Shown: positions 5,534 to 55,291, counted from the first letter of the stretch. The stretch: DNA of 64,000 nucleotides from Candidatus Rokuibacteriota bacterium (GCA_003220315.1 QHSA01000134.1:2759-66758); one strand, 5' to 3'. The notes: generated by a model not told the origin, from the letters alone. Numbers and translations: made by a program.

Positions 5534-5535
5534 GC

Positions 5536-6540
5536 TCAGCCGAGCGGCACGCGGAGCTCGCGGAGCCGCGCGTCGGACGGGGGAGGGACGACCCGCGTCG
5601 GCTCGGCGGGAGCGCCGGGATCGAAGAGGGCGAGCGCGGCGAGGACGCGCGTGCGCTGCGCGAGCCCGCTGCCGAGCGGGACGTGGACGCCGGGTCCGAC
5701 CAGCTCGACGGCGGCGCCCTTCTCGAGGAGGTGAACGGCGAGCGACGCCGCCTCGGCGAGGCCGCGCTCGAGCCGCTCGGGATCGCCGCGCCCGGTCCCC
5801 TCGAGCACGAGCCGGGCGTCGAGCCCCGCGTCGGCCTCGAGCTCGCGCACCATCAACGCGGCGGACTTGGCGCTCGACCGCCAGTGGATGAGCCGGGGGT
5901 CGTCGCCGAACCGATACTCGCGCAGATTGTGGAGGCCATGCCCGCGGCCCCGACGAGGCGCGGGGGCGCCGCCGGTGCCGGCGAGCTCACGGCGCCGGTC
6001 GGCCGAGATCGGGCTCACGGCCGGGTAGACGAGAACCTCCGCGCTCGGCGGGAGCTGCGCCGCCTTGACGAACAGGCCGAACGGGAACCGCGTGGCGACC
6101 TTGAAGCCCGCGACCCGCCAGCGCCCCCGCGCCCGTGGGGTCTCCTGCCACGTGACGAGCCGCGCGCCGCCCCCTTCGAGCTTCGCGAGATACGCGCGAT
6201 GCCCTCCGCCCAAGACCTCGACGGTGATCGAGTAGGAGGTGCGCCAGCGCTTGCGGTTGACCACCCGGGCCGCGACGAGCGCGGCCTGTCCGGCGAAGAG
6301 CTCGGCGGGCAGGGCGGGCTCGACGCGCACTCGACGGATCGACTGCTCGGAGAGCACCCCCGACACGATGATCAGGCCGAGCAGCATCGAGACGAGGAGA
6401 TAGAAGAGATTGTTCCCGGTGTTGATGGCGGCGAATCCGAGGCCGAGCGCGGCGCCGAGGCACCACCAGCCGTCGCGCGTGGGCCAGAGCGTGCGTCGCG
6501 GCCACGCGAGCCACCAGCCGACCCGACGCCCAGATGTCAC
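5536..6540 (-). CDS. DUF58 domain protein
   Basis: AINTGNNL, TRFPFGLF and LREYRFGDDPRLIHWRSSAK motifs; sits between MoxR and TgpA genes. Confidence 0.9.
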   Translation of the reverse strand: MTSGRRVGWWLAWPRRTLWPTRDGWWCLGAALGLGFAAINTGNNLFYLLVSMLLGLIIVSGVLSEQSIRRVRVEPALPAELFAGQAALVAARVVNRKRWRTSYSITVEVLGGGHRAYLAKLEGGGARLVTWQETPRARGRWRVAGFKVATRFPFGLFVKAAQLPPSAEVLVYPAVSPISADRRRELAGTGGAPAPRRGRGHGLHNLREYRFGDDPRLIHWRSSAKSAALMVRELEADAGLDARLVLEGTGRGDPERLERGLAEAASLAVHLLEKGAAVELVGPGVHVPLGSGLAQRTRVLAALALFDPGAPAEPTRVVPPPSDARLRELRVPLG

Positions 6541-6544
6541 GCGG

Positions 6545-6709
6545 GAGTCACCGGGGATGGGTCGCCGGGCGGGGGGTAGCGAGACCCGTTCCCGCCGCGT
6601 CGAATGCGGACGTCACGGCGCCGCGATGGAGCCCAGCCACGACGGGTCATGCGCACGCGAGCCGCGTGGTCGAGCCGCCCCCCGCCCGGCGACCCATCCC
6701 CGGTGGCTC
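6545..6709. repeat. ~165-bp element bounded by a perfect 28-bp inverted repeat (MITE/REP-like)
   Basis: 6549-6576 caccggggatgggtcgccgggcgggggg is the exact reverse complement of 6678-6705. Inner 7-bp IR gacccgt (6583-6589) / acgggtc (6642-6648). Confidence 0.75.
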
Positions 6710-6717
6710 ACCGCGCG

Positions 6718-7659
6718 TCACCGCGGCACCGGGACTTCGTGGGCGATGGCGCGGATGACGGACTCGGCATCGACGCCGCCGTCGCGCGGCCGGCCGGTGG
6801 CGCCCCGCACGAGCACGCGGTGGGCGAGCGCCGGAACGGCGAGCGTCTTGACGTCGTCGGGCACGAGGTAGTCGCGGCCGTCGGCGAGCGCCCACGCGCG
6901 CGCCGCGCGGAGGAGCGCGAGCGCGCCGCGCGGACTCACGCCGAGCGGGAGGAGCGGCGACGCGCGCGTCGCCGCGACGAGCGTCATCACGTAATCGAGG
7001 ATCGGCTCCTCGGCGTGCACGCGCTCGGCCTCCGCCTGGAGGTGGAGCACCTCCTCGACGCCGAGCACCGGGACGAGCGCGTCCGCCGACGGCACACCGG
7101 TGCCGCGCAGGATCGTCTTCTCGTCGCCGCTCGCGGGGTAGCCGATCCGGATGCGCAAGAGGAACCGGTCGAGCTGCGATTCGGGCAACGGGTGCGTCCC
7201 CTCGTACTCGAGCGGGTTCTGAGTCGCGAGCACCATGAAGGGACGCGGCAACTGGTACGTCGAGTGGTCGAGCGACACCTGGGTTTCATTCATCGCTTCC
7301 AGCAGACTCGATTGGGTCTTCGGGGTGGTTCGATTGATCTCGTCGGCCAGGACGATGTTGGTGAAGAGGGGGCCCGGCTTGAAGACGAACGCGCTGCGCT
7401 CGGGCTGCCAGACCGAGACGCCGAGGATATCGGACGGGAGCATGTCGGAGGTGAACTGGATGCGCTGGAAGCCGGCGCCGATGGATCGCGCCAGCGCGGC
7501 GGCCAGCGTGGTCTTGCCGACGCCGGGCACGTCCTCGATCAGCAGGTGACCGCGCGCCACCAGGCCGATCACGGCGAGGCGCACCACCTCCGGCTTGCCG
7601 ACCAGGGCGCGGCCGACGTTCGTCTCCAACCGGCGGATCAGCTCGAGCGCACGGCCCAT
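6718..7659 (-). CDS. moxR: MoxR family AAA+ ATPase
   Basis: EDVPGVGKT, RIQFTSDMLPSD, DEINRTTPKTQSSLLEAM, ATQNP and LPESQLDRF motifs. Confidence 0.93.
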   Translation of the reverse strand: MGRALELIRRLETNVGRALVGKPEVVRLAVIGLVARGHLLIEDVPGVGKTTLAAALARSIGAGFQRIQFTSDMLPSDILGVSVWQPERSAFVFKPGPLFTNIVLADEINRTTPKTQSSLLEAMNETQVSLDHSTYQLPRPFMVLATQNPLEYEGTHPLPESQLDRFLLRIRIGYPASGDEKTILRGTGVPSADALVPVLGVEEVLHLQAEAERVHAEEPILDYVMTLVAATRASPLLPLGVSPRGALALLRAARAWALADGRDYLVPDDVKTLAVPALAHRVLVRGATGRPRDGGVDAESVIRAIAHEVPVPR

Positions 7660-27993: not shown

Positions 27994-29540
27994 CGCTTCT
28001 GATCCTGGAGCCCGTCCGGCGTCACCACCACGCCGGCCTGGCCTGCCTGCCGCATCTGATAGGGAAGCCCCAGCTTGTCGAGGACCGTCCGGAGCTCCGA
28101 CTCGCCATGGGCGTCGAGGAACTCGACGCTGATCACCGCGAGGTTGGAGACCTTGCCTTGGCTGTCCTGGAGCTGGACGACCTGCGCGTTCCGCTGATGA
28201 TCGTGGAAGTCGTAGATCGTGCACATCGGAAATTCGTGATGCAGGTACTCGCGCACCGAGGCGATCTTCGCCTCGGTGTCGTTCAGGAGGGGCTTCTCGG
28301 GGAATCTCCCGGTCTTCGTGTCGTCGAGCGGGGCCGTCTCGGGGAACTTCTCGATCTTCACGTCGTCGAGCGCGGGTTTCTCGAGAAACTGCCCGATCCT
28401 CACGTTGTCGAGTGCGGGCTTCTCGAGAAACGCCCCGACCTTCACGTTGTCAAGTGCGGGCTTCTCGAGAAACGCCCCGACCTTCGCGTCGTCGAGCGGG
28501 GTCTTCTCGAGGAACTTCCGCCACTGCGGCACCAGCTCGCCATTCGGCGGGAGCTTGACGACGTCGAGCAGCGCGCGCCGCATGGCGTCCGCGTGTCGCC
28601 CGGCGCCTCCGTTGTGGAAGGGTCCGACGTGCGCGCCTACGGGCTCCTTCTCGGGCTCTGGCGTCGGGCTCACTGGCCTTTCGTGCGCGGCGACGGGGAC
28701 AGGGTCGGCCGAGCGAGGGTCGAACGTGCCGGCGAGCTTCTCGAGGAACTTCCGCCATGCGGGGGTCATCTCGTGCTCGTCGTCCAGCCTGGCGTCGGCC
28801 GCCGGTGCTGCCGGCTGCGACACGGGCTCCCGGGACGGCATCGCGGGGGCCGGGGTCTCGGCGACCGGTGCACTCGAGGCAGCGGCCCACGCCGTGGACT
28901 CAGCCTGTCTGGGTGAGCCATGGGGCGCCTGCGTCTCGGGTGTCAGGAGGCCGAACCACCGGGACGGTTGCGCGGGCTCGGCGGCCGGACGCGACGCCGC
29001 GAGCGGCGCCGGGCGGCCGAAGACAACGGGGTCCGCGGGCGCGGCGGCGGCAGTCGCCGGCGGCGTGGCTCGCGCGGGCTCGGTTGCCGCCCAGTCGACG
29101 GGGTCGAGGTAGAATCCGGTCGCCTCGTTGACCTCGACGCACCGATACTCGAAGCAGTTCACGGCCGGGAAAGCCAGCAGCCTGATCTTTCTGAGGAACG
29201 ACTCGGGCAGGCGCTCGGCGATGAACACGACGCGCGGAGGCCAGCCACCGGCGCTGTCGCCCCCCGGCATCAGACGCCGGACGGACTCCGGATACTCGAG
29301 CGTCCACGCGTAGGCCTCGACCATCCTGAAGAGCATCGTGTCGTCGCCCGTGAAGCCGAGCGCGATGAGCGCCGGCGTCTTGCGTCGATCCACGCCGACG
29401 AGCTCGACTGTCGACCGGCCGAAGTTGACGGTGGTGGAGAGTACGCGGAAGCCAGGCTCCACCGCTTCAGCGTTTTCGGCGACAAGCGCCTGGAGCTGGG
29501 ACAGGTCCTTGACTTCGTGCTTCCTGAATGTCAGCTTCAT
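27990..29540 (-). CDS. hypothetical protein: degenerate PD-(D/E)xK-like N-domain, Pro/Ala linker, six 14-aa repeats, conserved-looking C-domain
   Basis: Long ORF from ATG 29540 (MKLTFRKHEV) with coding-like codon usage; a sigma54 promoter lies immediately upstream. Confidence 0.7.
   Translation of the reverse strand: MKLTFRKHEVKDLSQLQALVAENAEAVEPGFRVLSTTVNFGRSTVELVGVDRRKTPALIALGFTGDDTMLFRMVEAYAWTLEYPESVRRLMPGGDSAGGWPPRVVFIAERLPESFLRKIRLLAFPAVNCFEYRCVEVNEATGFYLDPVDWAATEPARATPPATAAAAPADPVVFGRPAPLAASRPAAEPAQPSRWFGLLTPETQAPHGSPRQAESTAWAAASSAPVAETPAPAMPSREPVSQPAAPAADARLDDEHEMTPAWRKFLEKLAGTFDPRSADPVPVAAHERPVSPTPEPEKEPVGAHVGPFHNGGAGRHADAMRRALLDVVKLPPNGELVPQWRKFLEKTPLDDAKVGAFLEKPALDNVKVGAFLEKPALDNVRIGQFLEKPALDDVKIEKFPETAPLDDTKTGRFPEKPLLNDTEAKIASVREYLHHEFPMCTIYDFHDHQRNAQVVQLQDSQGKVSNLAVISVEFLDAHGESELRTVLDKLGLPYQMRQAGQAGVVVTPDGLQDQKR
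28263..28514 (-). repeat. in-frame 42-bp x6 tandem repeat (FLEKPALDNVKVGA-type)
   Basis: Units: FLEKTPLDDAKVGA, FLEKPALDNVKVGA, FLEKPALDNVRIGQ, FLEKPALDDVKIEK, FPETAPLDDTKTGR, FPEKPLLNDTEAKI. Confidence 0.85.
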
Positions 29541-29554
29541 TCGGACACTGATCG

Positions 29555-29570
29555 AGCAACCGGTGTGCCA
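29555..29570 (-). promoter_or_regulatory. sigma54 (-24/-12) promoter
   Basis: Minus strand reads TGGCAC-ACCGG-TTGCT, a full match to TGGCAC-N5-TTGCW; ends 14 bp before ATG 29540. Confidence 0.75.
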
Positions 29571-29712
29571 GTGGCGGAGGCCCACTCCAGCCCGCCGAAT
29601 CAAGAGGTTAGGGCGGCGTGGACGCTCTGGACCCTGTCAGGGGCCGGCCACAGTGGCACACGCGAACACGACCGGCCGTCACGCGGGGTCGAGCGTAGTG
29701 ATCGGCCAGAAA

Positions 29713-29737
29713 TTGACCAGTGTTGACAGGCGGTCAA
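29713..29737. promoter_or_regulatory. nested inverted repeat (TTGACC-N13-GGTCAA containing TTGAC-N5-GTCAA), candidate enhancer (UAS)
   Basis: Sequence ttgaccagtgttgacaggcggtcaa; located ~95 and ~140 bp upstream of the two divergent sigma54 boxes. Confidence 0.5.
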
Positions 29738-29831
29738 AATCTAGGCATGTGGTCTCGTGCCTTGGTAGGAGGCAGGGTCTTAACGCGTTGATTCCAAGAG
29801 AAAAGAGGGATGAGGCCCCACTCAAGGACCG

Positions 29832-29847
29832 TGGCACCCGGATTGCT
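29832..29847 (+). promoter_or_regulatory. sigma54 (-24/-12) promoter
   Basis: TGGCAC-CCGGA-TTGCT (GG-N10-GC), upstream of the first GAF-GGDEF gene. Confidence 0.75.
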
Positions 29848-29901
29848 GGCTCTAGGGAATCTGATGGCACCGTCCGAGCCCACGGTGGACCGGCGTTGGG
29901 A

Positions 29902-30972
29902 ATGACGGCCACTGAAACCATGTCGCTTGCGATCAACCTCACCGAGGCGTTCCGTGACCTCGTGCAGATCGGCATCGCCCTCACGAGCGAGCGGGACCTC
30001 GCGACGCTGCTGCACCGGATCCTGACCGAGGCGCGTCGCTTCACGCGCGCCGAGGCGGGCACGCTCTTCCTTCGCGAGAAGGACGAGCTGCACTTCGCGG
30101 TCGTCCAGAACGACCGGCTCGCCCGACGGCTGGGCGACCCGGAGATGCAGCGTCTGTTGCAGTCCGAGCCCCTGAAGCTCTCCGAGCCGAGCTTGGCCGG
30201 CCACGTCGCGCTGATGGGCGAGATCGTCAACCTTCCCGACACCTACGCGATCCCGCCAGACCGACCCTACAGCTTCTATCCGCTCTTCGACGTCCGATGC
30301 GACTACAAGACCCGGTCGGCCCTCGTGGTGCCGCTCCAGGACCCGGCCGGGAACATCTTCGGGGTCCTCGAGCTCATCAACGCCCTCGACGAGAGCGGAC
30401 GCGTCGTACCGTTCGACGTCGAGTACGAGGGCCTCGTGCGCTCGCTCGCCTCGCAAGCCGCCGTCGCGATCCGAAACGCGCGGCTCGAGGACCTCTCGTT
30501 CAAGGACGCGTTGACGGATGTGTACAACCGGCGGTACTTCATCGTGCGCATCGAGGAGGAATCCCGGCGGCACCTGCGGTTCGCCGAGCCAGTGTCGCTC
30601 GTCTTGCTGGACCTCGATCGCTTCAAGGACGTGAACGACCGGTTCGGGCACCGCGCGGGCGACGAGGCGTTGCGCGAGGTCGCGCAGGTCCTGCTCAAGC
30701 ACTCGCGGAACTTTACCGTCGTCACCCGGTACGGGGGCGACGAGTTCGCGGTGCTCCTGGTCAACACGGGCAAGGACGGCGCGGTCGCGTACGGGGAGCG
30801 GATCCGCGAGGTCATCGCGGAGCACGCCTTCGCCCACGGCACCGTGACCGTCAGTCTGGGTGTCGCGAGCCTCCCGGAGGATGCCGCGAGCGGCGACGAC
30901 CTCGTGGTCGCCGCGGACAAGGCGATGTACGAGGCGAAGCGCCTGGGCCGGAATCGCGTCGTCGCGGTCTAG
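29902..30972 (+). CDS. GAF-GGDEF diguanylate cyclase (paralogue 1)
   Basis: GAF (DYKTRSALVVPL...GVLELIN), DLDRFKDVNDRFGH and RYGGDEF. Start 29902 or 29920. Confidence 0.92.
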   Translation: MTATETMSLAINLTEAFRDLVQIGIALTSERDLATLLHRILTEARRFTRAEAGTLFLREKDELHFAVVQNDRLARRLGDPEMQRLLQSEPLKLSEPSLAGHVALMGEIVNLPDTYAIPPDRPYSFYPLFDVRCDYKTRSALVVPLQDPAGNIFGVLELINALDESGRVVPFDVEYEGLVRSLASQAAVAIRNARLEDLSFKDALTDVYNRRYFIVRIEEESRRHLRFAEPVSLVLLDLDRFKDVNDRFGHRAGDEALREVAQVLLKHSRNFTVVTRYGGDEFAVLLVNTGKDGAVAYGERIREVIAEHAFAHGTVTVSLGVASLPEDAASGDDLVVAADKAMYEAKRLGRNRVVAV

Positions 30973-30998
30973 GCACTCTGGAACGTCGGGAGGCCACG

Positions 30999-32060
30999 CT
31001 GGCGCCACCGGAACCCCCAGCCATCGATCTCACCCAGGCCTTCAGAGAGCTGGTGCAGATCGGGATCACGCTGACCAGCGAGCGCGACCTGAGCGTCCTG
31101 CTGGAGCGGATTCTGACCGAGGCGCGTCGCTTCACGCGCGCCGAGGCCGGCACGCTGTTCCTCCGCGATGGTGAGCAGCTCCGCTTCGCCGTGGTCCAGA
31201 ACGACCGGCTGTCGGGGAAGCTCGGCACGGAGGAGATGCGGCGTCAGTTCGAGGAGCAGCCCCTCGACCTCCGCGAGATGAGCCTCGCCGGGCACGTCGC
31301 GCTCACGGGCGACATCCTGAACCTTCCCGAGCCCTACGCGATCCCGCCCGACCGGCCGTACAGCTTCGACGCGCGGGTGGACGCGCGCATGAACTACCGG
31401 ACCGAGTCCATCCTCGTGGTGCCGCTCCAGGGCCCCTCGGGGAACATCCTCGGCGTGCTCGAGCTGATCAACGCCCTTGACGGGGGTCGAGTGGTCCCCT
31501 TCGCCCCCCAGTACGAGCCCCTCGTGCGAGCGCTCGCCGCGCAGGCCGCCGTCGCGATCCGCAACGCGCGACTCGAGGACCTGTCGCTGAAGGACGCGCT
31601 GACGGACGTGTACAACCGTCGGTACTTCATGATTCGCCTGGAGGAGGAGTTCAAGCGCCACACGCGGTTCCGCGAGCCGCTGTCGCTGGTCATGCTCGAC
31701 GTCGACCACTTCAAAGAGGTCAACGACCGCTTCGGCCACCGGGCGGGTGACGAGGTGCTCCGCGGCATCGCCGCGCTCCTCCTGAGGCACTCGCGCAGCT
31801 TCAGCGTCGTCACCAGGTACGGAGGCGACGAGTTCGCCATCGTCCTCGTCAACACCCCCAAGGACGGCGCCCTGACGTACGCCGAGCGGATCCGGTCCGT
31901 CGTGGCGGAGTACGAGTTCCGCCACGGCATCGTCACCGTCAGTCTGGGCGCAGCCTCCTTGCCCGAGGACGGCGCCTGCGGCGACGACCTCGTCGTCGCC
32001 GCCGACAAGGCACTCTACGATGCGAAGCGGCTGGGACGGAATCGAGTCGCGCCGCTCTGA
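30999..32060 (+). CDS. GAF-GGDEF diguanylate cyclase (paralogue 2); probable CTG start
   Basis: DVDHFKEVNDRFGH and RYGGDEF; collinear with paralogue 1; GGAGG 5 nt before the in-frame CTG at 30999. Confidence 0.85.
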   Translation: MAPPEPPAIDLTQAFRELVQIGITLTSERDLSVLLERILTEARRFTRAEAGTLFLRDGEQLRFAVVQNDRLSGKLGTEEMRRQFEEQPLDLREMSLAGHVALTGDILNLPEPYAIPPDRPYSFDARVDARMNYRTESILVVPLQGPSGNILGVLELINALDGGRVVPFAPQYEPLVRALAAQAAVAIRNARLEDLSLKDALTDVYNRRYFMIRLEEEFKRHTRFREPLSLVMLDVDHFKEVNDRFGHRAGDEVLRGIAALLLRHSRSFSVVTRYGGDEFAIVLVNTPKDGALTYAERIRSVVAEYEFRHGIVTVSLGAASLPEDGACGDDLVVAADKALYDAKRLGRNRVAPL

Positions 32061-32068
32061 GCGGGGTC

Positions 32069-33112
32069 ATGGCTGACCTGACGCGACTCCTCGACGAGCT
32101 CCTCGAGATCGGGATCGCGCTCACGAGCGAGCGGGATCTCGGGGCGCTCCTCGAGCGCATCCTCTCGCAGGCCCGGCGCGTCACGCGTGCGGAGGCCGGC
32201 ACGGTGTTCCTGCGCGACGGCGACCACCTCCGCTTCGCGGTCGTCCAGAACGACTTCCTCGAGGCGCGGCTGGGCAAGCGCGAGATGGAACGACGGCTGC
32301 AGGCCGAGCCGATGCCGCTCGGCGAGCCGAGCCTGGCCGGCCACGTCGCCCAGACCGGGGAGCTCATCAACGTGAGCGACGCGTACGCGATCGTCGGGCA
32401 ACGGACCGTGGCGTTCAACAAGACGGTCGACGAGACGACCGACTACGCGACCCGCTCCGTCTTCGTCGTGCCGCTCCAGGACATCAACGGCAACATCGTG
32501 GGCGTGCTCGAGCTCCTCAACGCCCTGGGCGAGGACGGCTCGGTCGTCCCGTTCGACCCGGGGTACGAGAAGCTGGTCCGCGCCCTCGCCTCCCAGGCTG
32601 CCCTGGCGATCCGCAACGCGCGGCTCGAAGACCTGTCGTTCAAGGACCCGCTGACCGATCTGTTCAACCGGCGTTACTTCGCGCTCCGCCTCGACGAGGA
32701 GGCCAAACGCGCCGCGCGCTTCGGCCACCCCCTGTCGCTCGTCTACCTCGACCTCGACGACTTCAAGAAGCTGAACGAGGACAAGGGGCGGCCGGCGGGC
32801 GACGAGGTGCTCAGGGAGGTGGCGCGGCTCCTCGTGAAGCACTCGCGCAGCTTCACGATCGTGGCGCGCCGGGAGGGCGACGACTTCGCCGTGATCCTGG
32901 CGAACACGCCGAAGGCCGGCGCGATGAGCTATGCCGAGCGCATCCGGGGCGTCCTCGAGCAGCACCCGTTCCCGCCGGGCCCGGTCACGGCGAGCCTCGG
33001 CGTAGCGGCCTTCCCCGCCGACGCGGCCAGCGCCGAGGACCTCATGGCCCGGGCCGAGCAGGCGCTCACCGAGGGGAAATCGCGCGGCCGGAATCGCGTC
33101 GCGCAGCGCTGA
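32069..33112 (+). CDS. GAF-GGDEF protein (paralogue 3) with degenerate active site
   Basis: RREGDDF replaces RYGGDEF; NEDKGR replaces NDxxGH. Confidence 0.88.
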   Translation: MADLTRLLDELLEIGIALTSERDLGALLERILSQARRVTRAEAGTVFLRDGDHLRFAVVQNDFLEARLGKREMERRLQAEPMPLGEPSLAGHVAQTGELINVSDAYAIVGQRTVAFNKTVDETTDYATRSVFVVPLQDINGNIVGVLELLNALGEDGSVVPFDPGYEKLVRALASQAALAIRNARLEDLSFKDPLTDLFNRRYFALRLDEEAKRAARFGHPLSLVYLDLDDFKKLNEDKGRPAGDEVLREVARLLVKHSRSFTIVARREGDDFAVILANTPKAGAMSYAERIRGVLEQHPFPPGPVTASLGVAAFPADAASAEDLMARAEQALTEGKSRGRNRVAQR

Positions 33113-35039: not shown

Positions 35040-35723
35040 ATGACCGCGCCGAGCCCGTTCCGTAAGGAGCTCGAGGCCGCCGTCAATGCCCGGCACAGCC
35101 GGCTGAACCCGTTCACCGAGAAGTGGGTGAAGGGCGAGCTGTCGCGCGCCCAGCTCGGCGCGTGGGCGGCACAGCACTACCAGTACGTGTCGCAGTTCCC
35201 GCGGTGGTGCGCCACCGTGTACGGCGAGTGCCCGGACCCGGACGCGCGCGACTTCCTGCTCGAGAACATCATCGAGGAGGAGTCGGGAACCAAGCACGTG
35301 GATCTCCTGATCCGCTTCGCCGAGGCGTGCGGCGTGAGCCGCGCCGAGGTCGAGACCGCGCGGCAGCTACCGACCACACGCGGGCTCACCGCCTGGTGCT
35401 ACGAGATGTCCCATCGGTCGTTCCACATCGCCGCGGCGGGGCTCCTGGTCGGCCTCGAGTCACAGGTGCCGGGCATCTACAGGCGCAACCTGCCGCCGCT
35501 CAAGACGCACTACGGCTTCACCGACCACGAGGTCGAGTTCTTCGCGATCCACATCGAGGCCGACGAGGTGCACGGCGAGCGCGGCTACGCGATCGTCGAG
35601 CGTCACGCGACGACCGCCGAGAAGAAGGCCGAGGCGATCGAGGCCGTGCGTCAGGCCACCCTGATGCGTTGGCAGTACATGACCGGGCTCCACCGCGCCT
35701 TCATCCTGAAGGAAGAGCCGTAG
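35040..35723 (+). CDS. heme-oxygenase-like diiron oxidase (TenA/PqqC/CADD superfamily)
   Basis: Diiron ligand motifs EEES.TKH, LESQ and HIEADEVH. Confidence 0.82.
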   Translation: MTAPSPFRKELEAAVNARHSRLNPFTEKWVKGELSRAQLGAWAAQHYQYVSQFPRWCATVYGECPDPDARDFLLENIIEEESGTKHVDLLIRFAEACGVSRAEVETARQLPTTRGLTAWCYEMSHRSFHIAAAGLLVGLESQVPGIYRRNLPPLKTHYGFTDHEVEFFAIHIEADEVHGERGYAIVERHATTAEKKAEAIEAVRQATLMRWQYMTGLHRAFILKEEP

Positions 35724-35769
35724 GCGAGTCGGTGATCGTGGCAGGGGGAGCCGCAGGCGAGGCGCGTCC

Positions 35770-36078
35770 ATGCCTCTGATCCGCGTGGCCCGCCTGGACG
35801 AGCTCCCGGCGGGCCAGCTCACGCGGGTGGAGGCGGGCGGCACGCGCATCGTCCTGGCCCGCGTCAAGGACGAGGTCTTCGCGTGCAACGATGTCTGCGC
35901 CCACCAGGGCGGCCCGCTGAGCGAGGGCAAGCTCTCCGGGGCGCGCCTCGCCTGCCCCTGGCACGGGTGGATGTACGACGTACGTACCGGTGAGTGCGTG
36001 CTACCCGGGCGCGGCCACCGCGTGGCGAGCTATCCGATCCGGATCGACGCGGGCGAGGTCTGGGTGGAGGTCCCCTGA
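35770..36078 (+). CDS. Rieske [2Fe-2S] ferredoxin
   Basis: CAHQG...CPWHG. Confidence 0.92.
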   Translation: MPLIRVARLDELPAGQLTRVEAGGTRIVLARVKDEVFACNDVCAHQGGPLSEGKLSGARLACPWHGWMYDVRTGECVLPGRGHRVASYPIRIDAGEVWVEVP

Positions 36079-36080
36079 CG

Positions 36081-36506
36081 ATGGCGCTCACGCAGAAACA
36101 CGCCCACGAGTGCATCCAGCGCGGATTCGCCAGGGCGCACGCCCTCGGCTTCAAGGTCGCCATCGCCGTCGTGGACGACGCGGGCCACCTCGTCGCGTGC
36201 GAGCGCATGGACGGCGCGCTCTGGGTCACGCCCGAGATCGCCCGGGCGAAGGCAAACGCCGCCGCCGCCTTCCGCACGACGACGCTCGAGCTCGAGGAGC
36301 GCTTCGGCAAGGGTCGCCAGCTCTTCGCGTCGAACGTCGCCATGCTCGGCGACTACGCGTTCGTCTTCGGCCGCGGCGCCGTGCCCATCGTCGAGGATGG
36401 GCAGATCGTCGGCGCCGTCGGCGTGAGCGGTGCGGTCCCCGCCGATAACGACCACACGATCGCCGACGAAGCCGCGGGACACCCCGAGCTTCCCAAGAGT
36501 CATTAG
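36081..36506 (+). CDS. GlcG/HbpS-like heme-binding protein (DUF336)
   Basis: AIAVVDDAGH....ERMDGA, IARAKA.AA and GAVGVSG.....DH. ATG 36081. Confidence 0.85.
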   Translation: MALTQKHAHECIQRGFARAHALGFKVAIAVVDDAGHLVACERMDGALWVTPEIARAKANAAAAFRTTTLELEERFGKGRQLFASNVAMLGDYAFVFGRGAVPIVEDGQIVGAVGVSGAVPADNDHTIADEAAGHPELPKSH

Positions 36507-49858: not shown

Positions 49859-51592
49859 GTGAAGAACCTCGAGATCGCGCGCCTCTTCGACGAGATGGCG
49901 CGCCTCCTCGAAGTCCGAAACGAATCCGTCTTCCGTGTGCGCGCGTACGCGCGCGCGGCGCAGACGCTCGAAACGCTCGGCGAGAGCGTCGAGGCCGTCG
50001 CCGCGCGCGGCGAGCTCGCGCAACTCCCTGGGATCGGGCGCGAGCTCGCGGCGAAGATCGGGGAGTACCTGGCGACGGGTCGCCTCGCGCAGCTCGACGA
50101 GCTGCGCGGCGGCCTCCCGCCGACCTTCCTGACCCTCCTCGAGATCCGTGGCCTCGGTCCCAAGACCGCCAGGCTGCTCTACGACCGGCTCGGCGTGGAC
50201 TCCGTCTCGCGGCTCGAGGCGCTCGCTCGATCGGGCGAGATCCTCCGCGTGCCGGGCATCCGCGAGAAGACGCGCGAGAATCTTCTCAAGTCGATCGCCC
50301 TCTGGCAGGCCGGCCGCGCGCGCACGCCCCTCGCCCGGGCGCGCGAGATCGCGGCGCGCGTCGCCGAGGCGCTCGCGGCCCACGGCGGCGCCGACCGGAT
50401 CGAGGTCGCCGGCTCCCTCCGCCGGATGCGTGAGACCGTGAAAGACATCGACATCCTCGTGACCTCCACCGAGCCGGCACGCGTGATCGAGACGTTCGTC
50501 TCGCTTCCGTCGATCCTCGAGGTCTCCGCTCGGGGCGACACGAAGGCGTCGGTGCGCCACGCGGAGGGGCTCCGGATCGACCTGCGCGTCGTCGAGCCCG
50601 ACGCGTTCGGCGCCGCCCTCCAGTACTTCACGGGCTCGAAGGACCACAACGTGAGGCTCCGCGAGCTGGCGCGGCGCCAGGGGCTCTCCGTGAGCGAGTA
50701 CGGCGTCTTCGACGAGAAGACGGGCGTCCGCGTCGCCGGAAAAACCGAGGCGGAGGTGTACGGGGTCCTCGGGCTCCCGTATATTCCACCCGAGCTCCGG
50801 GAGAACGCGGGCGAGCTCGAGGCCGCGCGCGACGGGCGCCTGCCCGCGCTCGTGACACGGGCGGCGATCCGCGGCGACCTTCACGCGCACACGGACGCCT
50901 CCGACGGTCACCATTCCTTGGAGCACCTCATCGAGGCGGCCCAGGCGCGCGGTTACGAGTACGTCATCGTCTCCGACCACTCGAAGTCCGCGACCGTGGC
51001 CCGCGGCCTGGGCGCCGACGAGCTGCGGGCGCAGATCGCGAGGATCCGGGCGCTTCAGCCCCGCTACCGGATCCGGATCCTGGCGGGCAGCGAGTGCGAC
51101 GTCCTTGGCGACGGCACGCTCGACTTCCCCGACGACACCTTGAGGGAGCTCGACCTGGTCCTCGCCGCGGTCCACTCCCGCTTCAAGCAGGCGCGGCTCG
51201 AGATGACGGCGCGCATCGTCCGCGCGCTCGCGAACCCGTACGTCAACATCCTCGCGCACCCGACCGGGCGCTTGCTCGGCGCGCGCGAGCCGTACGACGT
51301 GGACCTCGACGCCGTGTTCGAGGCCGCCCGCGCGCACAACAAAGCGGTCGAGATCAACGCGTCGCCCGAGCGGCTCGACCTCAACGACATCCACGCGCGG
51401 CGAGCGGCGGGGCTCGGCGTGCCGGTGGCGATCTCGACCGACACCCACTGGCTCGCGAACCTCGACAACCTCGAGCTGGGCCTCGGCATCGCCCGGCGCG
51501 CGTGGATCGGCCCCGCGCAGGTCGTCAACGCGCTGCCGCTCGCCGACCTCCTCACGTGGGCGCACCGGGGGAGGCCGGGTGCGCGCGAGTGA
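49859..51592 (+). CDS. polX: DNA polymerase X / PHP-domain 3'-5' exonuclease
   Basis: LPGIG HhH, GSLRR, KDIDIL, YFTGSKDHN and PPELRE; PHP motifs DLHAHT, SDHS, AHPTGR and TDTH. GTG 49859. Confidence 0.93.
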   Translation: MKNLEIARLFDEMARLLEVRNESVFRVRAYARAAQTLETLGESVEAVAARGELAQLPGIGRELAAKIGEYLATGRLAQLDELRGGLPPTFLTLLEIRGLGPKTARLLYDRLGVDSVSRLEALARSGEILRVPGIREKTRENLLKSIALWQAGRARTPLARAREIAARVAEALAAHGGADRIEVAGSLRRMRETVKDIDILVTSTEPARVIETFVSLPSILEVSARGDTKASVRHAEGLRIDLRVVEPDAFGAALQYFTGSKDHNVRLRELARRQGLSVSEYGVFDEKTGVRVAGKTEAEVYGVLGLPYIPPELRENAGELEAARDGRLPALVTRAAIRGDLHAHTDASDGHHSLEHLIEAAQARGYEYVIVSDHSKSATVARGLGADELRAQIARIRALQPRYRIRILAGSECDVLGDGTLDFPDDTLRELDLVLAAVHSRFKQARLEMTARIVRALANPYVNILAHPTGRLLGAREPYDVDLDAVFEAARAHNKAVEINASPERLDLNDIHARRAAGLGVPVAISTDTHWLANLDNLELGLGIARRAWIGPAQVVNALPLADLLTWAHRGRPGARE

Positions 51593-52322
51593 CAAGCAGG
51601 AGATTCGCGAGCGCGTCTGGGCGCTCCTGACCGCGCGCCGCGTCGCGCGCTTCCCGCTGCCGCTCGCGGACCGGATCCCCAACTTCGCGGGCGCCGAGCG
51701 CGCGGCGGAGCGGCTCGCCGAGACTCCCGAGTGGAAGGCCGCGACGCGTCTCAAGTGCAATCCCGACGCGGCCCAGCGCCCCGTGAGGCTCCGAGCATTG
51801 CGTGAGGGCAAGCTCGTCTTCATGGCCGTGCCGCGCCTTCGCGAGGAGCGGTGCTTCCTCCGCCTCGACCCGGCGAAGCTCGGTCATCGGGTCGCCGAGG
51901 CCGCCACGATCGCCGGCGCCGCCAGGCTCGGCGCGCCCGTGCCGCCGGAGTCGCTCGGCGCGATCGACCTCGTGATCGTCGGCAGCGTGGCGGTGAGCCC
52001 GGACGGCGCGCGCGTCGGCAAGGGCGGCGGGTACAGCGACCTCGAGTTCGCCCTGGCCCGCGAGCTCGGCGCGGTCGGCGAGGACACGCCCGTGGCGACA
52101 ACGGTCCACGAACTCCAGATGCTCGACGAGCCACTCCCGATGACGGACCATGACGTTCCGCTCGACCTGATCGCGACGCCCGAGCGGGTGACCCGCACAC
52201 GGCGCACGCTCCCGAAGCCGAAGGGAATCCGCTGGGAGGAGCTCTCCCCGGCGCAGCTCGCCGCGATGCCGGTTCTCGCGCGGCTCCGGCGCCGGCGGGG
52301 CGGTCCGCGGCCGGTGGCGTGA
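51579..52322 (+). CDS. 5-formyltetrahydrofolate cyclo-ligase family (MTHFSD/archaeal type)
   Basis: RIPNFAGAE, KCNPDAAQRPVR, GSVAV...GARVGKGGGYSDLE and HDVPLD. Confidence 0.85.
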   Translation: MRASDKQEIRERVWALLTARRVARFPLPLADRIPNFAGAERAAERLAETPEWKAATRLKCNPDAAQRPVRLRALREGKLVFMAVPRLREERCFLRLDPAKLGHRVAEAATIAGAARLGAPVPPESLGAIDLVIVGSVAVSPDGARVGKGGGYSDLEFALARELGAVGEDTPVATTVHELQMLDEPLPMTDHDVPLDLIATPERVTRTRRTLPKPKGIRWEELSPAQLAAMPVLARLRRRRGGPRPVA

Positions 52323-52575: not shown

Positions 52576-54348
52576 ATGAAACATTGGACCGACCTCTTCA
52601 AGTTGGTGGTTGCGTTGCTCACGCTGGCCGTCCTGTTGCCCGCACCGGCCGCCCTGGCCGGGTCCTCGGCGGACGAGATCAAGAACTGCCCTGACCAGAA
52701 CTGGTGCGCCTACCATCGCACGGTGGATACCGCGTGGCGGCACAGCCCGCTGACCCAGGTCAACACCACGAATGTGAAGCGGCTGCGCCCGGTCTGGATC
52801 TTCCAGCCCGGCGACCCGCGGATGGGCCTTCACAGCACGCCGCTGGTGATCGACGGCAATATGTACGTGTCCACGAACCCGTCGACGGTCTGGAAGCTCA
52901 ACGCGACGACGGGTGAGCGGATCTGGGCGTACGTCCCCAAGATGGACGACGCGATCGTGTCCCGCTCGTTCTTCGGCCACACCCGCGGCCTGGCGATCGG
53001 CGACGGGCGCGTGTACATGGGGCTCGCCGACGGCCGTCTGGTCGCCCTCGATGAGGGGACCGGCAAGGTCATCTGGGACCGGCAAATCGTGAACTCCAAG
53101 AAGGACACCGCCGGCTTCAGCGGGGCGGCGACCTTCGTGAACGCCAACCTGCTCGTCATGGGGCAGAACGGCGGCGAGTATCCGGTCGAGGGAAAGATCT
53201 TCGGGATCAACCCCAAGACCGGCGACATCAAATGGATCTTCTACACGACGGGGCGGGACGATCCGAAGGCCCTGGCGACCTGGAAGGGCGACTCCTGGAA
53301 GTATGGCGGCGGCGGATCCTGGCAGCCGGGGTCGATCGACTACGAGAACAATCAGATCATCATCGGGGTCGGGAACCCGAATCCGGACTACGACTACTGC
53401 GGCGAAAAGTGCCTGGACCCGAACGCCGACGGCTGGCGACCCGGCGGGAACCTCTACACCTCGTCGACGGTCGCCCTCGACCTCAACACCGGTAAGCTGA
53501 ACTGGTTCTTCCAGGAAGCACCGGCCGATCCCTACGACTACGACGCGTCCCCGGGTGAGTACGTCCTGTTCGATGACTCGCAGAAGGGAAAGCTCGTGCT
53601 GCATCCAGGGAAGAACGGGTTCAACCACGTGCACGACCGGAAGACGGGCAAACCCCTCAACGTCTACCCGGACATGAAGTCGTTCAACTGGACGACCGGG
53701 TTCAACCTGGAGACGGGCAAGTGGGAGAACATGCTGTGGCCGAAGGCAGGGGTGAAGACCCTGGTCTGCCCCGCCATTGATGGGGGGCATAGCTGGAACG
53801 CCGGGGCGTACAGCCCCCAGACGAAGCTCTTCTATCGCATCGCCAACGAGTGGTGCATGGACCTGACCGTCTCCCCGAAGGGCGGGGGAACGACGATCAC
53901 AGCGGGATCCGAGAGTCGCATCACCGAGCCCTTCGCGCAGGCGTTCATGAGCGCCGAATGGGTGGGCGCGAACCCGCCAGGCGACACCGCCCACGGCCGC
54001 CTGACGGCCCGTGATCCCGTGAGCGGGAAGATCGCCTGGGAGAAGCGGTACGACCTGATTCCGCACTCCGCGCTCCTGTCCACCGCCGGCGGGCTGGTCT
54101 TCGTGGGGACCATCGACGGCTTCGTCGAGGCGCTCGACGCCAAGACGGGCGACAGGCTGTGGCGGTTCAACAACGGCACCTCCCACAACGGAGGGATCGT
54201 CTCGTACTCGGTTGGAGGGAAGCAGTACATCGCGGTGGCGACGGGCCACGGTTCCTACGTCGGGAGGGCCCTCGCCGACCACTACCACAAGGACAAGTTG
54301 CTCAACTTCAAGGAGAGCGCCGCGGTCGTGGTCTTCTCGCTCGACTGA
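52576..54348 (+). CDS. secreted PQQ-dependent dehydrogenase (methanol/ethanol/glucose dehydrogenase superfamily), atypical
   Basis: Signal peptide; RHSPLTQVNTTNV.RL..VW, STPLVIDG, GGEY, GGGSW, GNP, YDYD and VCPAIDGGHSW; GGAGG RBS. Confidence 0.9.
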   Translation: MKHWTDLFKLVVALLTLAVLLPAPAALAGSSADEIKNCPDQNWCAYHRTVDTAWRHSPLTQVNTTNVKRLRPVWIFQPGDPRMGLHSTPLVIDGNMYVSTNPSTVWKLNATTGERIWAYVPKMDDAIVSRSFFGHTRGLAIGDGRVYMGLADGRLVALDEGTGKVIWDRQIVNSKKDTAGFSGAATFVNANLLVMGQNGGEYPVEGKIFGINPKTGDIKWIFYTTGRDDPKALATWKGDSWKYGGGGSWQPGSIDYENNQIIIGVGNPNPDYDYCGEKCLDPNADGWRPGGNLYTSSTVALDLNTGKLNWFFQEAPADPYDYDASPGEYVLFDDSQKGKLVLHPGKNGFNHVHDRKTGKPLNVYPDMKSFNWTTGFNLETGKWENMLWPKAGVKTLVCPAIDGGHSWNAGAYSPQTKLFYRIANEWCMDLTVSPKGGGTTITAGSESRITEPFAQAFMSAEWVGANPPGDTAHGRLTARDPVSGKIAWEKRYDLIPHSALLSTAGGLVFVGTIDGFVEALDAKTGDRLWRFNNGTSHNGGIVSYSVGGKQYIAVATGHGSYVGRALADHYHKDKLLNFKESAAVVVFSLD

Positions 54349-54453
54349 GATGTACGCGCGAGGTGGGACAGGGGCGTGCTCCCTTGTCCCACCTGACCTT
54401 CCTCCGCCCACCAAGGCGCGGGCCTCGTCCCCGACGACCGAGGACAACCAGCG

Positions 54454-54891
54454 ATGACGCTCAACCTGGGCACGCGGCGAGTGCGTTGTCTCGCCCTCGT
54501 CCTCGCGCTCTGCGGGGTCGTCGGCGTCGTGGCGGCGGGGGCGCAGATGACCGGCCCGCCGTCCGAGGAGAAGCGGTCCCCCAAACCTCAGAGTTCTGCG
54601 ACCAACCCGGTCTCAGGCCAGCCCGAGGCGATCGACGCCGGACGCAAGCTCTACGTCATCTGGTGCGTTCAGTGCCACGGCCCCAAGGCGGACGGCGTGT
54701 CGCGATTCGGCAAGTACGCGGCGGACCTGCGCGTCTTCTGGCGGGGCTACGGCGAATTCGTCACGATTGTGAAGAACGGACGGGTCGACCGGCAAATGCC
54801 GCCGTGGAAGGAAGTCCTGGACGATGCCAAGATCGCGCAACTCGGCGCCTTTCTCGAGACCCTCGCCGAAGAAGGCGCGAACTGGAAGTAG
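54454..54891 (+). CDS. periplasmic class I c-type cytochrome
   Basis: Signal peptide, CVQCHG heme motif, distal Met in QMPPW. Confidence 0.88.
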   Translation: MTLNLGTRRVRCLALVLALCGVVGVVAAGAQMTGPPSEEKRSPKPQSSATNPVSGQPEAIDAGRKLYVIWCVQCHGPKADGVSRFGKYAADLRVFWRGYGEFVTIVKNGRVDRQMPPWKEVLDDAKIAQLGAFLETLAEEGANWK

Positions 54892-54892
54892 C

Positions 54893-55291
54893 ATGAGGGC
54901 TCCTTCGGCCGTGATCCTGGTGGTCGGCGTCGTTGTGGGGCTCGCCCACGCCGGCGAATATCTGCAGACGCTGAAGGAGGGCTCCTGGGTGTGCACCACA
55001 CCCGAAACCTACGACCTCGCGATCGCGGAAGCGCGAAAGCCCAACAGCAATCTGGAGGACCTGAAAGAGCGCTTCGTCGCGGAGAAGCTGTGCATCTACG
55101 CCGACGCGGAGTTTGTCGAGAAGATGATGGTCCCCTTCGCCAAGGTCCTCGAGCGTCAAGGCGCCAAAGTGAAGGTGACGTTCACCGTGCAGTTCCGCAA
55201 GCGCCTCGCGATCCTGCACAGACAGGTTTCGCGCGTGACGTTCGTCGGATGGACGGACGCGAGTAACCTCGAAGACAAGGAGATCCTCTAG
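54893..55291 (+). CDS. secreted hypothetical protein (132 aa, two Cys)
   Basis: Signal peptide ending in AHA; starts 1 bp after the cytochrome stop. Confidence 0.7.
   Translation: MRAPSAVILVVGVVVGLAHAGEYLQTLKEGSWVCTTPETYDLAIAEARKPNSNLEDLKERFVAEKLCIYADAEFVEKMMVPFAKVLERQGAKVKVTFTVQFRKRLAILHRQVSRVTFVGWTDASNLEDKEIL

Follow-up and report, generated by a model that had tools for sequence, protein, structure and literature searches.

A widespread, unstudied clade of quinoprotein dehydrogenases linked to a cytochrome c and a small secreted protein in Candidatus Rokuibacteriota and other uncultured bacteria

Between positions 52,576 and 55,291 of a 64,000-nucleotide stretch of DNA from Candidatus Rokuibacteriota bacterium (GCA_003220315.1, QHSA01000134.1:2759-66758; the window, meaning here the whole stretch analysed), three open reading frames (ORFs), all co-directional on the + strand, encode a secreted pyrroloquinoline quinone (PQQ)-dependent dehydrogenase of 590 amino acids (52576..54348), a secreted mono-haem class I cytochrome c of 145 amino acids (54454..54891), and a small secreted protein of 132 amino acids, hereafter s1 (54893..55291). 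It is quite likely that these genes make up one periplasmic oxidation module, in which a PQQ- and metal-containing dehydrogenase would pass electrons to its own cytochrome c, with s1 as an accessory. The dehydrogenase belongs to a clade of its own. The system as a whole does not amount to a new kind: it varies the known pairing of a quinoprotein dehydrogenase with a cytochrome c, by a remodelled active site and a new conserved partner, and this variant is clearly delimited, widespread and unstudied. All three proteins begin with a hydrophobic, signal-like segment (judged by eye; approximately residues 1-28 in the dehydrogenase), and the dehydrogenase has no membrane anchor. A preliminary description of the locus, made from the sequence, had announced a cytochrome c with a CVQCH motif and a secreted 132-residue protein after the dehydrogenase, and both are present.

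The dehydrogenase scores 219.6 bits (E 1.1e-64) on the Pfam PQQ family (PF01011), whose gathering cut-off is 26.7; this score, together with hundreds of conserved homologues, shows that the match is not due to chance. An AlphaFold model built on 55 homologues (mean predicted local distance difference test score, pLDDT, 84.1; predicted template modelling score, pTM, 0.87) superposes as an eight-bladed beta-propeller on 30 solved PQQ dehydrogenases, with template modelling (TM) scores of 0.79-0.86. PedH is both the closest solved sequence (6zcv, E 1e-75) and the best fold match (TM 0.82-0.86, 32% identity), followed by XoxF, methanol dehydrogenase (MDH), ExaA and the quinohaemoproteins (TM 0.79-0.84). 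All solved structures are nevertheless at or below approximately 32-37% identity, MDH structures being no closer than 26-28%, and the protein does not reach the curated cut-off of any of the three NCBIfam quinoprotein models: TIGR03075 (methanol/ethanol; 413.7 bits, cut-off 480, with 387-398 bits for three further members of the clade and 770 for a XoxF5), TIGR04528 (acido-empty-quinoprotein group A; 295.9 bits, cut-off 650), and TIGR03074 (membrane-bound glucose, quinate and shikimate dehydrogenases; 144.4 bits, cut-off 832.65). Within its 590 residues there is only the signal-like N-terminus where membrane-bound forms have a multi-helix membrane domain, and no C-terminal haem c domain, as the protein ends at residue 590 and has no CxxCH motif.

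In a search of 5.8 billion proteins, more than 120 clusters were found at 69-100% identity to the dehydrogenase, under names that say little beyond 'alcohol dehydrogenase (cytochrome c)' or 'PQQ-dependent dehydrogenase'. Identity within the clade is 62-91%, and it does not exceed 42% to anything outside. Outside the clade, the nearest full-length relatives in a library of 50%-identity clusters (P0196, P0197, P0201 and P0202) share 38-42%, and lower down a continuum at approximately 35% identity includes membrane-anchored and haem-fused forms; the best plasmid match, also at 42%, is a Rhodococcus qingshengii protein (WP_064073807.1). In a neighbour-joining tree of 131 sequences (528 columns, 100 bootstraps), the clade is monophyletic in 100/100 bootstraps and forms a superclade with its sister sequences in 99/100, while PedH, ExaA, XoxF5, the Ketogulonicigenium vulgare enzyme and Gcd all lie outside it. 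The proposal of a new soluble quinoprotein clade, made in the preliminary description, is thus upheld by secretion, the lack of an anchor, the tree, the sub-threshold family scores and the conserved residues described below, and nesting inside a characterised clade was not seen for the references included, among which MxaF and ExaF do not figure. No paper describing this clade was found in the literature searched, the types of Keltjens et al. (2014) not having been compared.

The active site was read from an alignment with PedH, ExaA, a XoxF5 of a Ruegeria plasmid (so named by PGAP), the Ketogulonicigenium quinoprotein and Escherichia coli Gcd, which reproduces the published numbers of ExaA (C105/C106, E179, D316, R344), Gcd (W404, D466, K493) and PedH (E199, D323, D325). 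Three sequence features had been pointed out beforehand, namely a loop ADPYDYDASP with a second Asp two residues after the catalytic one, SFFGHTRG in place of the vicinal disulfide motif, and a Lys in GKNGF where MDHs have Arg, and all three stand where they had been placed and hold in the alignment. The loop spans residues 317-326 (53524-53553) and contains D321-Y-D323 (53536..53544, + strand), the predicted catalytic base and metal ligand (D321, codon GAC at 53536-53538) with the extra Asp of lanthanide enzymes (D323, 53542-53544); these align with D323/D325 of PedH and D318/D320 of XoxF5, whereas the Ca-dependent ExaA has D316 and S318. The other predicted metal ligands are Glu201 in GGEYPVEG (53176..53178, +; E199 in PedH, E179 in ExaA), kept in 55/55 and 77/78 clade members in two counts, and Asn267 in GVGNP (53374..53376, +; N281 in PedH, N266 in ExaA), identified by cross-checking the numbering. 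W249 is the Trp that stacks on PQQ (W263 in PedH, W404 in Gcd), and R137, aligned with R137 of PedH, is the Arg of the PQQ carboxylate. All 80 genome loci examined carry N267, C275, C279, D321, D323 and W249, and D323 is also present in 54 of 55 cluster representatives. Taking E201, N267, D321, D323, W249, R137 and K346 together, each is kept in 77-80 of the 80 species-level genomes. Two earlier assignments were abandoned on the same cross-check with published numbers: Asn292 (GGNLY) as metal ligand, the position being that of N267 (GxGNP), and a loss of the stacking Trp, which had followed from taking the Trp of a 'PWN' motif for the stacking residue instead of W249.

The vicinal Cys-Cys ring is replaced by the SFFGHTRG loop (residues 131-138; 52966..52989, +), in which S131 and F132 fill the columns of C131/C132 in PedH, C105/C106 in ExaA and C124/C125 in XoxF5. 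R130, F133, H135 (76/76) and R137 are invariant, and no member of the clade has a Cys in the equivalent loop; the alignment of this loop with Gcd is ambiguous, and an equivalence of His135 with Gcd His262 is not established. Lys346 (53611..53613, +; HPGKNGF, with GKNGF at residues 345-349), invariant in 78/78 members, aligns with R350 of PedH, R344 of ExaA and R345 of XoxF5, but with K493 of Gcd. It holds the position of MDH Arg331, which lies beside the C4 and C5 carbonyls of PQQ. A C275-G-E-K-C279 motif (53398..53412, +) starts a clade-specific insertion of approximately 12 residues relative to PedH, located after Y272, which aligns with PedH Trp285, a residue that we take to be at the entrance of the active site. 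A further pair, C398-C427, aligns with C408 and C437 of XoxF5.

Among 117 non-clade relatives compiled in a motif table, absence of the Cys pair is common, Lys in place of Arg is common, and D-x-D especially so. This agrees with large surveys, in which most environmental PQQ dehydrogenases have already been reported as D-x-D, with the lanthanide motif in 61% of marine ones (PMC11996626). Since the single residue states are common elsewhere, the marks of the clade are the combination of residues, the C-x3-C insertion and the partner gene, and the specific set can be written as R130-S-F-F-x-H135-[TS]-R137-G, GGEYP[VI]E205G, PNPDY272D[YF]C275-x3-C279, DPYD321YD323 and HPGK346NGF. The sister sequences (WP_064073807.1, P0196, P0197, P0201), which are also uncharacterised, share the lack of Cys-Cys, the Lys and, in most cases, D-x-D, but they have neither the RSFFxH loop nor the C-x3-C pair, the insertion that some of them show at that site being shorter and free of the Cys. 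Among the sisters, gene context was read for the Rhodococcus plasmid locus only; there a cytochrome c gene follows the dehydrogenase, and then comes a homologue of substrate-binding proteins, not s1. This R. qingshengii homologue (NZ_CP054209, 8875-13120) is, at 42% identity, the closest found in a cultured organism, and the genes that follow it, for a cytochrome c, a homologue of substrate-binding proteins and a protein annotated as 'TonB-dependent receptor', form a set typical of the Gram-negative periplasm, yet lie on an actinobacterial plasmid.

The 80 loci were found by scanning GTDB with each species represented by a single genome, and every one of them belongs to a metagenome-assembled genome (MAG). 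The hosts are Candidatus Rokuibacteriota (up to 91% identity), Entotheonella and Tectimicrobiota, Burkholderiales, SAR324, Gammaproteobacteria, many Alphaproteobacteria (Rhodospirillaceae, Thalassobaculaceae, Geminicoccaceae), and single chloroflexian (Chloroflexia) and actinobacterial bins. Identities of 70-75% between phyla suggest past horizontal spread or a very strong constraint. No cultured host was found among these 80 loci, which explains the lack of biochemistry.

The cytochrome c is encoded downstream of the dehydrogenase in 72/80 loci, presence of neighbours being scored by tblastn of the reference neighbours against each locus. It matches the Pfam family Cytochrome_CBB3 (E 1.3e-11) and has the haem motif C71-VQ-C74-H75 with axial Met115; at least 95% of 70 orthologues keep C71-x-x-C74-H75 and the Met. 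Among solved structures it comes closest to the haem domains of CcoP (E 1.3e-14), and it also matches the haem domain of the quinohaemoprotein alcohol dehydrogenase (ADH) IIG (1yiq, E 2.3e-5). It belongs neither to the cL/MoxG family (19.6 bits, cut-off 147.8) nor to PedF (27.7 bits, cut-off 122). From its position and conservation, it is presumed to be the electron acceptor of the dehydrogenase. The PedH and ExaA systems likewise have a separate soluble cytochrome c as acceptor, and in the type II quinohaemoprotein ADHs (ADH IIB and IIG; 1kv9, 1yiq, 1kb0), whose propellers match with E values of 1e-61 to 1e-71 and many of which also have Lys at the Arg position (QAPKNGF), electrons take the dehydrogenase-to-haem c route that would be expected here. 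In contrast with these last enzymes, which retain the Cys-Cys ring and have a fused C-terminal haem domain, the clade has its haem domain on a separate gene.

The gene for s1, whose ATG lies 2 nt past the stop codon of the cytochrome gene, is found downstream of the cytochrome in 69/80 loci. No significant family match was obtained for the protein in Pfam or NCBIfam, the one sub-threshold Pfam match (E 0.0096) being below the gathering score. Modelled with pLDDT 78.6 and pTM 0.66, it takes the form of a small alpha/beta domain containing a long antiparallel sheet; this model has no PDB fold match at E <= 0.001, and therefore no function was transferred from fold. The residues C34, C67, P81 and G119-W120-T121 reach a conservation of at least 95%. 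A word-based search retrieved 74 proteins only, the sole taxonomically labelled one being Rokubacterial; divergent orthologues are still recognisable in other phyla. By the searches run, s1 is unrelated to MxaI, MxaJ and MxaD. It has no counterpart in the PedH and ExaA systems, and it stands at the locus where a binding-protein gene of the XoxJ or PedG type might have been sought, none being present.

Most of the loci without these partners either lie on contigs that are cut short or are the second, 'orphan' copies of Entotheonella genomes, which have neither the cytochrome nor s1. In these Entotheonella chromosomes, two copies of the clade coexist (L039 and L046 in OX639990.1; L083 and L047 in OZ244252.1), one accompanied by the cytochrome, s1, a second small secreted protein and a Bat-like gene cluster, and the other partnerless. 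The second small protein, s2 (approximately 145 amino acids, no family), comes next in 31/80 loci and is absent from the window. The cluster, divergently oriented, adjoins the module in 29/80 loci spanning Alphaproteobacteria, Entotheonella and Burkholderiaceae, and encodes a MoxR AAA_3 ATPase, DUF58 and DUF4381 proteins, BatA-like and BatB-like VWA proteins, and a BatC-like TPR protein. MxaR, MxaS, MxaC and MxaL are the same kinds of protein and are needed for metal insertion into MDH. The resemblance of these 29 relatives to MxaFI with its mxaRSACKL genes thus extends to MoxR (AAA_3), DUF58, two VWA and one TPR protein, but the cluster scores best on Bat models (BatA, BatB, BatC) rather than on Mxa-specific ones, is absent beside the locus of the window, and is accompanied by no MxaI-like small subunit. 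PQQ biosynthesis genes adjoin the module in two MAGs, pqqB, pqqC, pqqD and pqqE lying immediately upstream of the dehydrogenase in one from Thalassobaculaceae, and pqqBCDE on the opposite strand in a second alphaproteobacterial one. In the two genomes with adjacent pqqBCDE (L002/L040 and L014), s1 and s2 are separated by a pair of DUF1800 and DUF1501 genes.

Beyond this core and the Bat-like cluster, an all-against-all clustering of neighbouring ORFs from the 80 loci, polluted by the shadow ORFs of high-GC DNA, returned lineage-specific neighbours only, so no substrate can be deduced from it. For example, in one alphaproteobacterial subgroup (L057-L068, L076, L082), divergent genes for an FAD-linked oxidase, a GMC oxidoreductase and an MR/MLE-type enolase lie approximately 1-8 kb upstream, the GMC oxidoreductase having a small subunit with a twin-arginine translocation (TAT) signal; these neighbours may hint at sugar-acid metabolism, in that lineage.

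Taken together, these elements lead to a scheme in which PQQ would be bound over Trp249, and a metal ion held by Glu201, Asn267, Asp321 and Asp323, with Asp321 as the base in the oxidation of a substrate of hydroxyl or aldehyde type and Lys346 occupying the usual place of Arg next to the quinone carbonyls. Reduced PQQ would then give up its electrons singly to the module's own mono-haem cytochrome c, which would relay them to the respiratory chain. The fold, the residue equivalences, the conservation and the linkage of the genes are established by the analysis; the occupancy by PQQ and metal, the route of the electrons, the class of substrate and the part played by s1 we infer. The s1 protein could be a clade-specific accessory subunit or a factor of assembly, docking or maturation. 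The invariant R-S-F-F-x-H-[TS]-R-G segment takes the place of the vicinal disulfide loop, the C-x3-C insertion being predicted to lie beside the entrance of the active site, and in many relatives the MoxR/DUF58/VWA/VWA/TPR chaperone cluster probably aids metal or cofactor insertion. The module probably oxidises an alcohol or a sugar; a His-rich, less aromatic pocket and the sugar-acid-type neighbours of one subgroup are weak hints that the substrate is polar (a sugar, polyol or acid) and not methanol.

Several observations weigh against a module working in this way. All 80 loci are from MAGs, and no member of the clade has been studied biochemically. Residues contacting PQQ or lining the pocket are invariantly replaced relative to PedH (K416 by H405, N417 by S406, W493 by H497 and W554 by H558, W285 by Y272 being a likewise fixed pocket difference), and a cofactor-binding geometry identical to that of MDH or ADH therefore cannot be assumed. 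The combination of D-x-D with Lys also occurs in Gcd. The neighbours give no consistent substrate clue, the FAD oxidase, GMC and MR/MLE genes recurring in the one alphaproteobacterial subgroup only, and the proposed role of s1 is deduced from gene linkage. In addition, there are no pqq genes in the 64-kb window and no MoxR/VWA cluster beside the locus. Two tblastn matches had looked like pqq genes: the PqqC-like one at 35040-35723 was rejected as a Haem_oxygenase_2/TENA protein, and the PqqD-like one at 30914-31168 for having no family match. Likewise, the MoxR gene at 6718-7659 was discarded as part of the module, since it belongs to a MoxR-DUF58-transglutaminase triad.

What metal would such a site hold? 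A calcium or magnesium ion is estimated to have slightly better than even chances, and a lanthanide slightly worse. Under the lanthanide alternative, itself given not quite an even chance, a trivalent rare-earth ion would be bound with the help of an additional carboxylate from Asp323, in the manner of XoxF, PedH and ExaF, and Ca2+ would leave the enzyme inactive or poorly active. The alignment of D323 with the second Asp of PedH and XoxF5, where the Ca-dependent ExaA has Ser, its near-complete conservation together with that of the E, N, D and D ligands, and the position of PedH as closest relative in both sequence and structure all speak in its favour. So do mutagenesis showing this Asp to be essential in lanthanide enzymes (bioRxiv 10.1101/2020.02.25.964783) and the treatment of D-x-D as diagnostic in surveys, although lanthanide use by glucose dehydrogenases was predicted there without a biochemical test (PMC11996626). 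The clade, however, lies outside all XoxF and PedH clades in the tree, and no lanmodulin-like or lanthanide-uptake gene stands beside the module in the loci read. The linked MoxR/VWA cluster resembles mxaRSACKL, which serves the Ca-dependent MxaFI. The preliminary description had cautioned that glucose dehydrogenases can have D-x-D too, and this caveat is borne out by E. coli Gcd, which works with Mg or Ca and carries both D466-M-D468 at the place of D321-x-D323 and Lys493 at that of K346, as well as Trp404 at that of W249, and no vicinal disulfide; because of this precedent, lanthanide dependence is possible but unproven. The likeness to Gcd is the main argument for the competing view of a Ca2+ or Mg2+ enzyme with a glucose-dehydrogenase-like site, soluble and cytochrome-linked, whose substrates would be sugars or polyols and not volatile alcohols, and which is held as a serious but still tentative option, a shade weaker than the lanthanide one. 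The invariant polar and His residues (H405, H497, H558 and Y272) at the places of Trp and Lys in the ADH pocket, the sugar-acid-type genes of the alphaproteobacterial subgroup, and the linkage to the Bat/Mxa-like chaperone cluster are consistent with it, but these neighbours are lineage-specific, the score on the membrane glucose dehydrogenase model (144 bits) is far below that on the methanol/ethanol model (414), and Gcd is the most distant of the alignment references (24% identity). Gcd moreover has an N-terminal membrane domain that the clade does not have, and reduces ubiquinone, not a cytochrome c.

A XoxF-type MDH supporting methylotrophy, the label that Rokubacterial PQQ enzymes have received in soil metagenomics, is unlikely, even though automated names of homologues ('alcohol dehydrogenase (cytochrome c)', 'methanol/ethanol family') point that way, as do the genes for formate-tetrahydrofolate ligase and 5-formyltetrahydrofolate cyclo-ligase in the window. 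XoxF enzymes (the Ruegeria XoxF5; 6dam, 4mae) do share with the clade the D-x-D motif, a periplasmic location and a cytochrome c acceptor, but the clade excludes XoxF5 (31% identity), its members reach 387-414 bits on TIGR03075, it lacks the Cys-Cys pair, the Arg and the pocket Trp residues, its loci have no XoxJ, and its cytochrome is not of the cL/XoxG kind; the adjacency of the cyclo-ligase gene is common to only two close relatives. Rokubacterial PQQ 'MDH' proteins have been detected in a soil proteome and are said to form a distinct branch, but four motif strings of the clade were not found in the supplementary files examined, including the MDH alignment, and the Rokubacterial proteome match quoted in that work has another gene context (PMC5103831). 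As for a non-catalytic propeller without cofactor, an 'empty quinoprotein' serving in binding or assembly, it would agree with the second-best NCBIfam match, 'acido-empty-quinoprotein group A', with the lack of pqq genes in the window and with the substitution of several PQQ-contact positions. It is nonetheless highly improbable, as the score of 296 on that model is far from its cut-off of 650, the catalytic Asp is invariant, as are all the metal ligands, the Trp that stacks on PQQ and Arg137, and linkage extends to the cytochrome c in 72/80 loci and to pqqBCDE in two.

Comparison with characterised enzymes places the clade nearest to the PedH/ExaF type (6zcv, 6zcw) and PedE/ExaA (1flg), which are also soluble periplasmic eight-bladed propellers with Glu, Asn and Asp ligands, PedH sharing in addition the extra Asp at +2. 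The clade differs from them in falling outside their branch at approximately 32-37% identity, in the missing vicinal Cys-Cys, in Lys for Arg, in the replaced pocket residues (Y272, H405, H497 and H558 for W285, K416, W493 and W554 of PedH), in the 12-residue C-x3-C insertion, and in a cytochrome that is not PedF.

Within the locus, the spacer of 105 nt that separates the dehydrogenase and cytochrome genes contains a perfect GC-rich stem of 14 bp with a loop of 6 nt (54361..54394, +), found by RNA folding (minimum free energy of the spacer -48.3 kcal/mol, z -2.48). No T-run follows it; the structure may act in the processing or stability of the mRNA and in this way set the ratio of dehydrogenase to cytochrome. 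The preliminary description had also perceived a codon style less GC-extreme than that of the flanks. Total GC is indeed lower (0.647 in the dehydrogenase gene, 0.669 in the cytochrome gene and 0.614 in the s1 gene, against 0.69-0.75 in the flanks), but the GC content of third codon positions (GC3) is 0.91 in the dehydrogenase gene, against 0.91-0.96 in the flanks, and only slightly lower, 0.85, in the other two. The lower GC of the dehydrogenase gene thus reflects amino-acid composition and not codon choice, because the decrease arises at the first and second codon positions, and a recent horizontal acquisition deduced from codon style was rejected, the hint of foreign origin finding no support in a flank-like GC3.

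The flanks carry housekeeping genes (PolX, 5-formyltetrahydrofolate cyclo-ligase, LOG, DapF, citrate synthase), and their synteny extends to two close Rokubacterial MAGs only (L006, L065). The cyclo-ligase gene (MTHFS; 51579-52322, +) ends approximately 250 nt before the dehydrogenase, an adjacency common to only these two MAGs, and the formate-tetrahydrofolate ligase gene lies at 1835-3457 (-). Next to the latter, 3458-7659 (-) holds the triad mentioned above, separate from the PQQ locus, with genes for MoxR AAA_3 (6718-7659), DUF58 (5536-6540) and a TgpA-type transglutaminase (3458-5533). The gene for the Haem_oxygenase_2/TENA-PqqC-superfamily protein stands beside one for an HbpS-like haem-degrading protein (35040-36506, +), and two paralogous genes for GAF-GGDEF diguanylate cyclases (29338-30972 and 32069-33112, both +) lie approximately 1 kb apart.

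PQQ dehydrogenases pass electrons from alcohols, aldehydes and sugars directly to the respiratory chain, and to our knowledge they are the only enzymes known to use rare-earth metals. The present clade is conserved at 62-91% identity across several phyla, in abundant, uncultured lineages of soil, groundwater, sponge symbioses and the sea, where its members currently go by labels such as 'alcohol dehydrogenase (cytochrome c)', 'methanol/ethanol family' or 'PQQ-binding-like repeat protein', and many metagenomes could be better interpreted in functional terms once the substrate and metal of the clade are known. Is the Cys-Cys ring required for electron transfer to cytochrome c? Is an Asp at +2 a sufficient marker of lanthanide use? 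Both are textbook assumptions that the clade puts to the test, and s1, as a conserved orphan partner, would be a new component of quinoprotein systems. In its boldest form, which we regard as doubtful, the clade would be a new class of rare-earth quinoproteins without the vicinal disulfide, with a C-x3-C loop and a His-rich pocket, in which the s1 subunit is needed for coupling to the cytochrome. If true, it would represent a widespread entry point into respiration in uncultured Rokubacteria, Entotheonella, SAR324, and marine and soil Alpha- and Betaproteobacteria.

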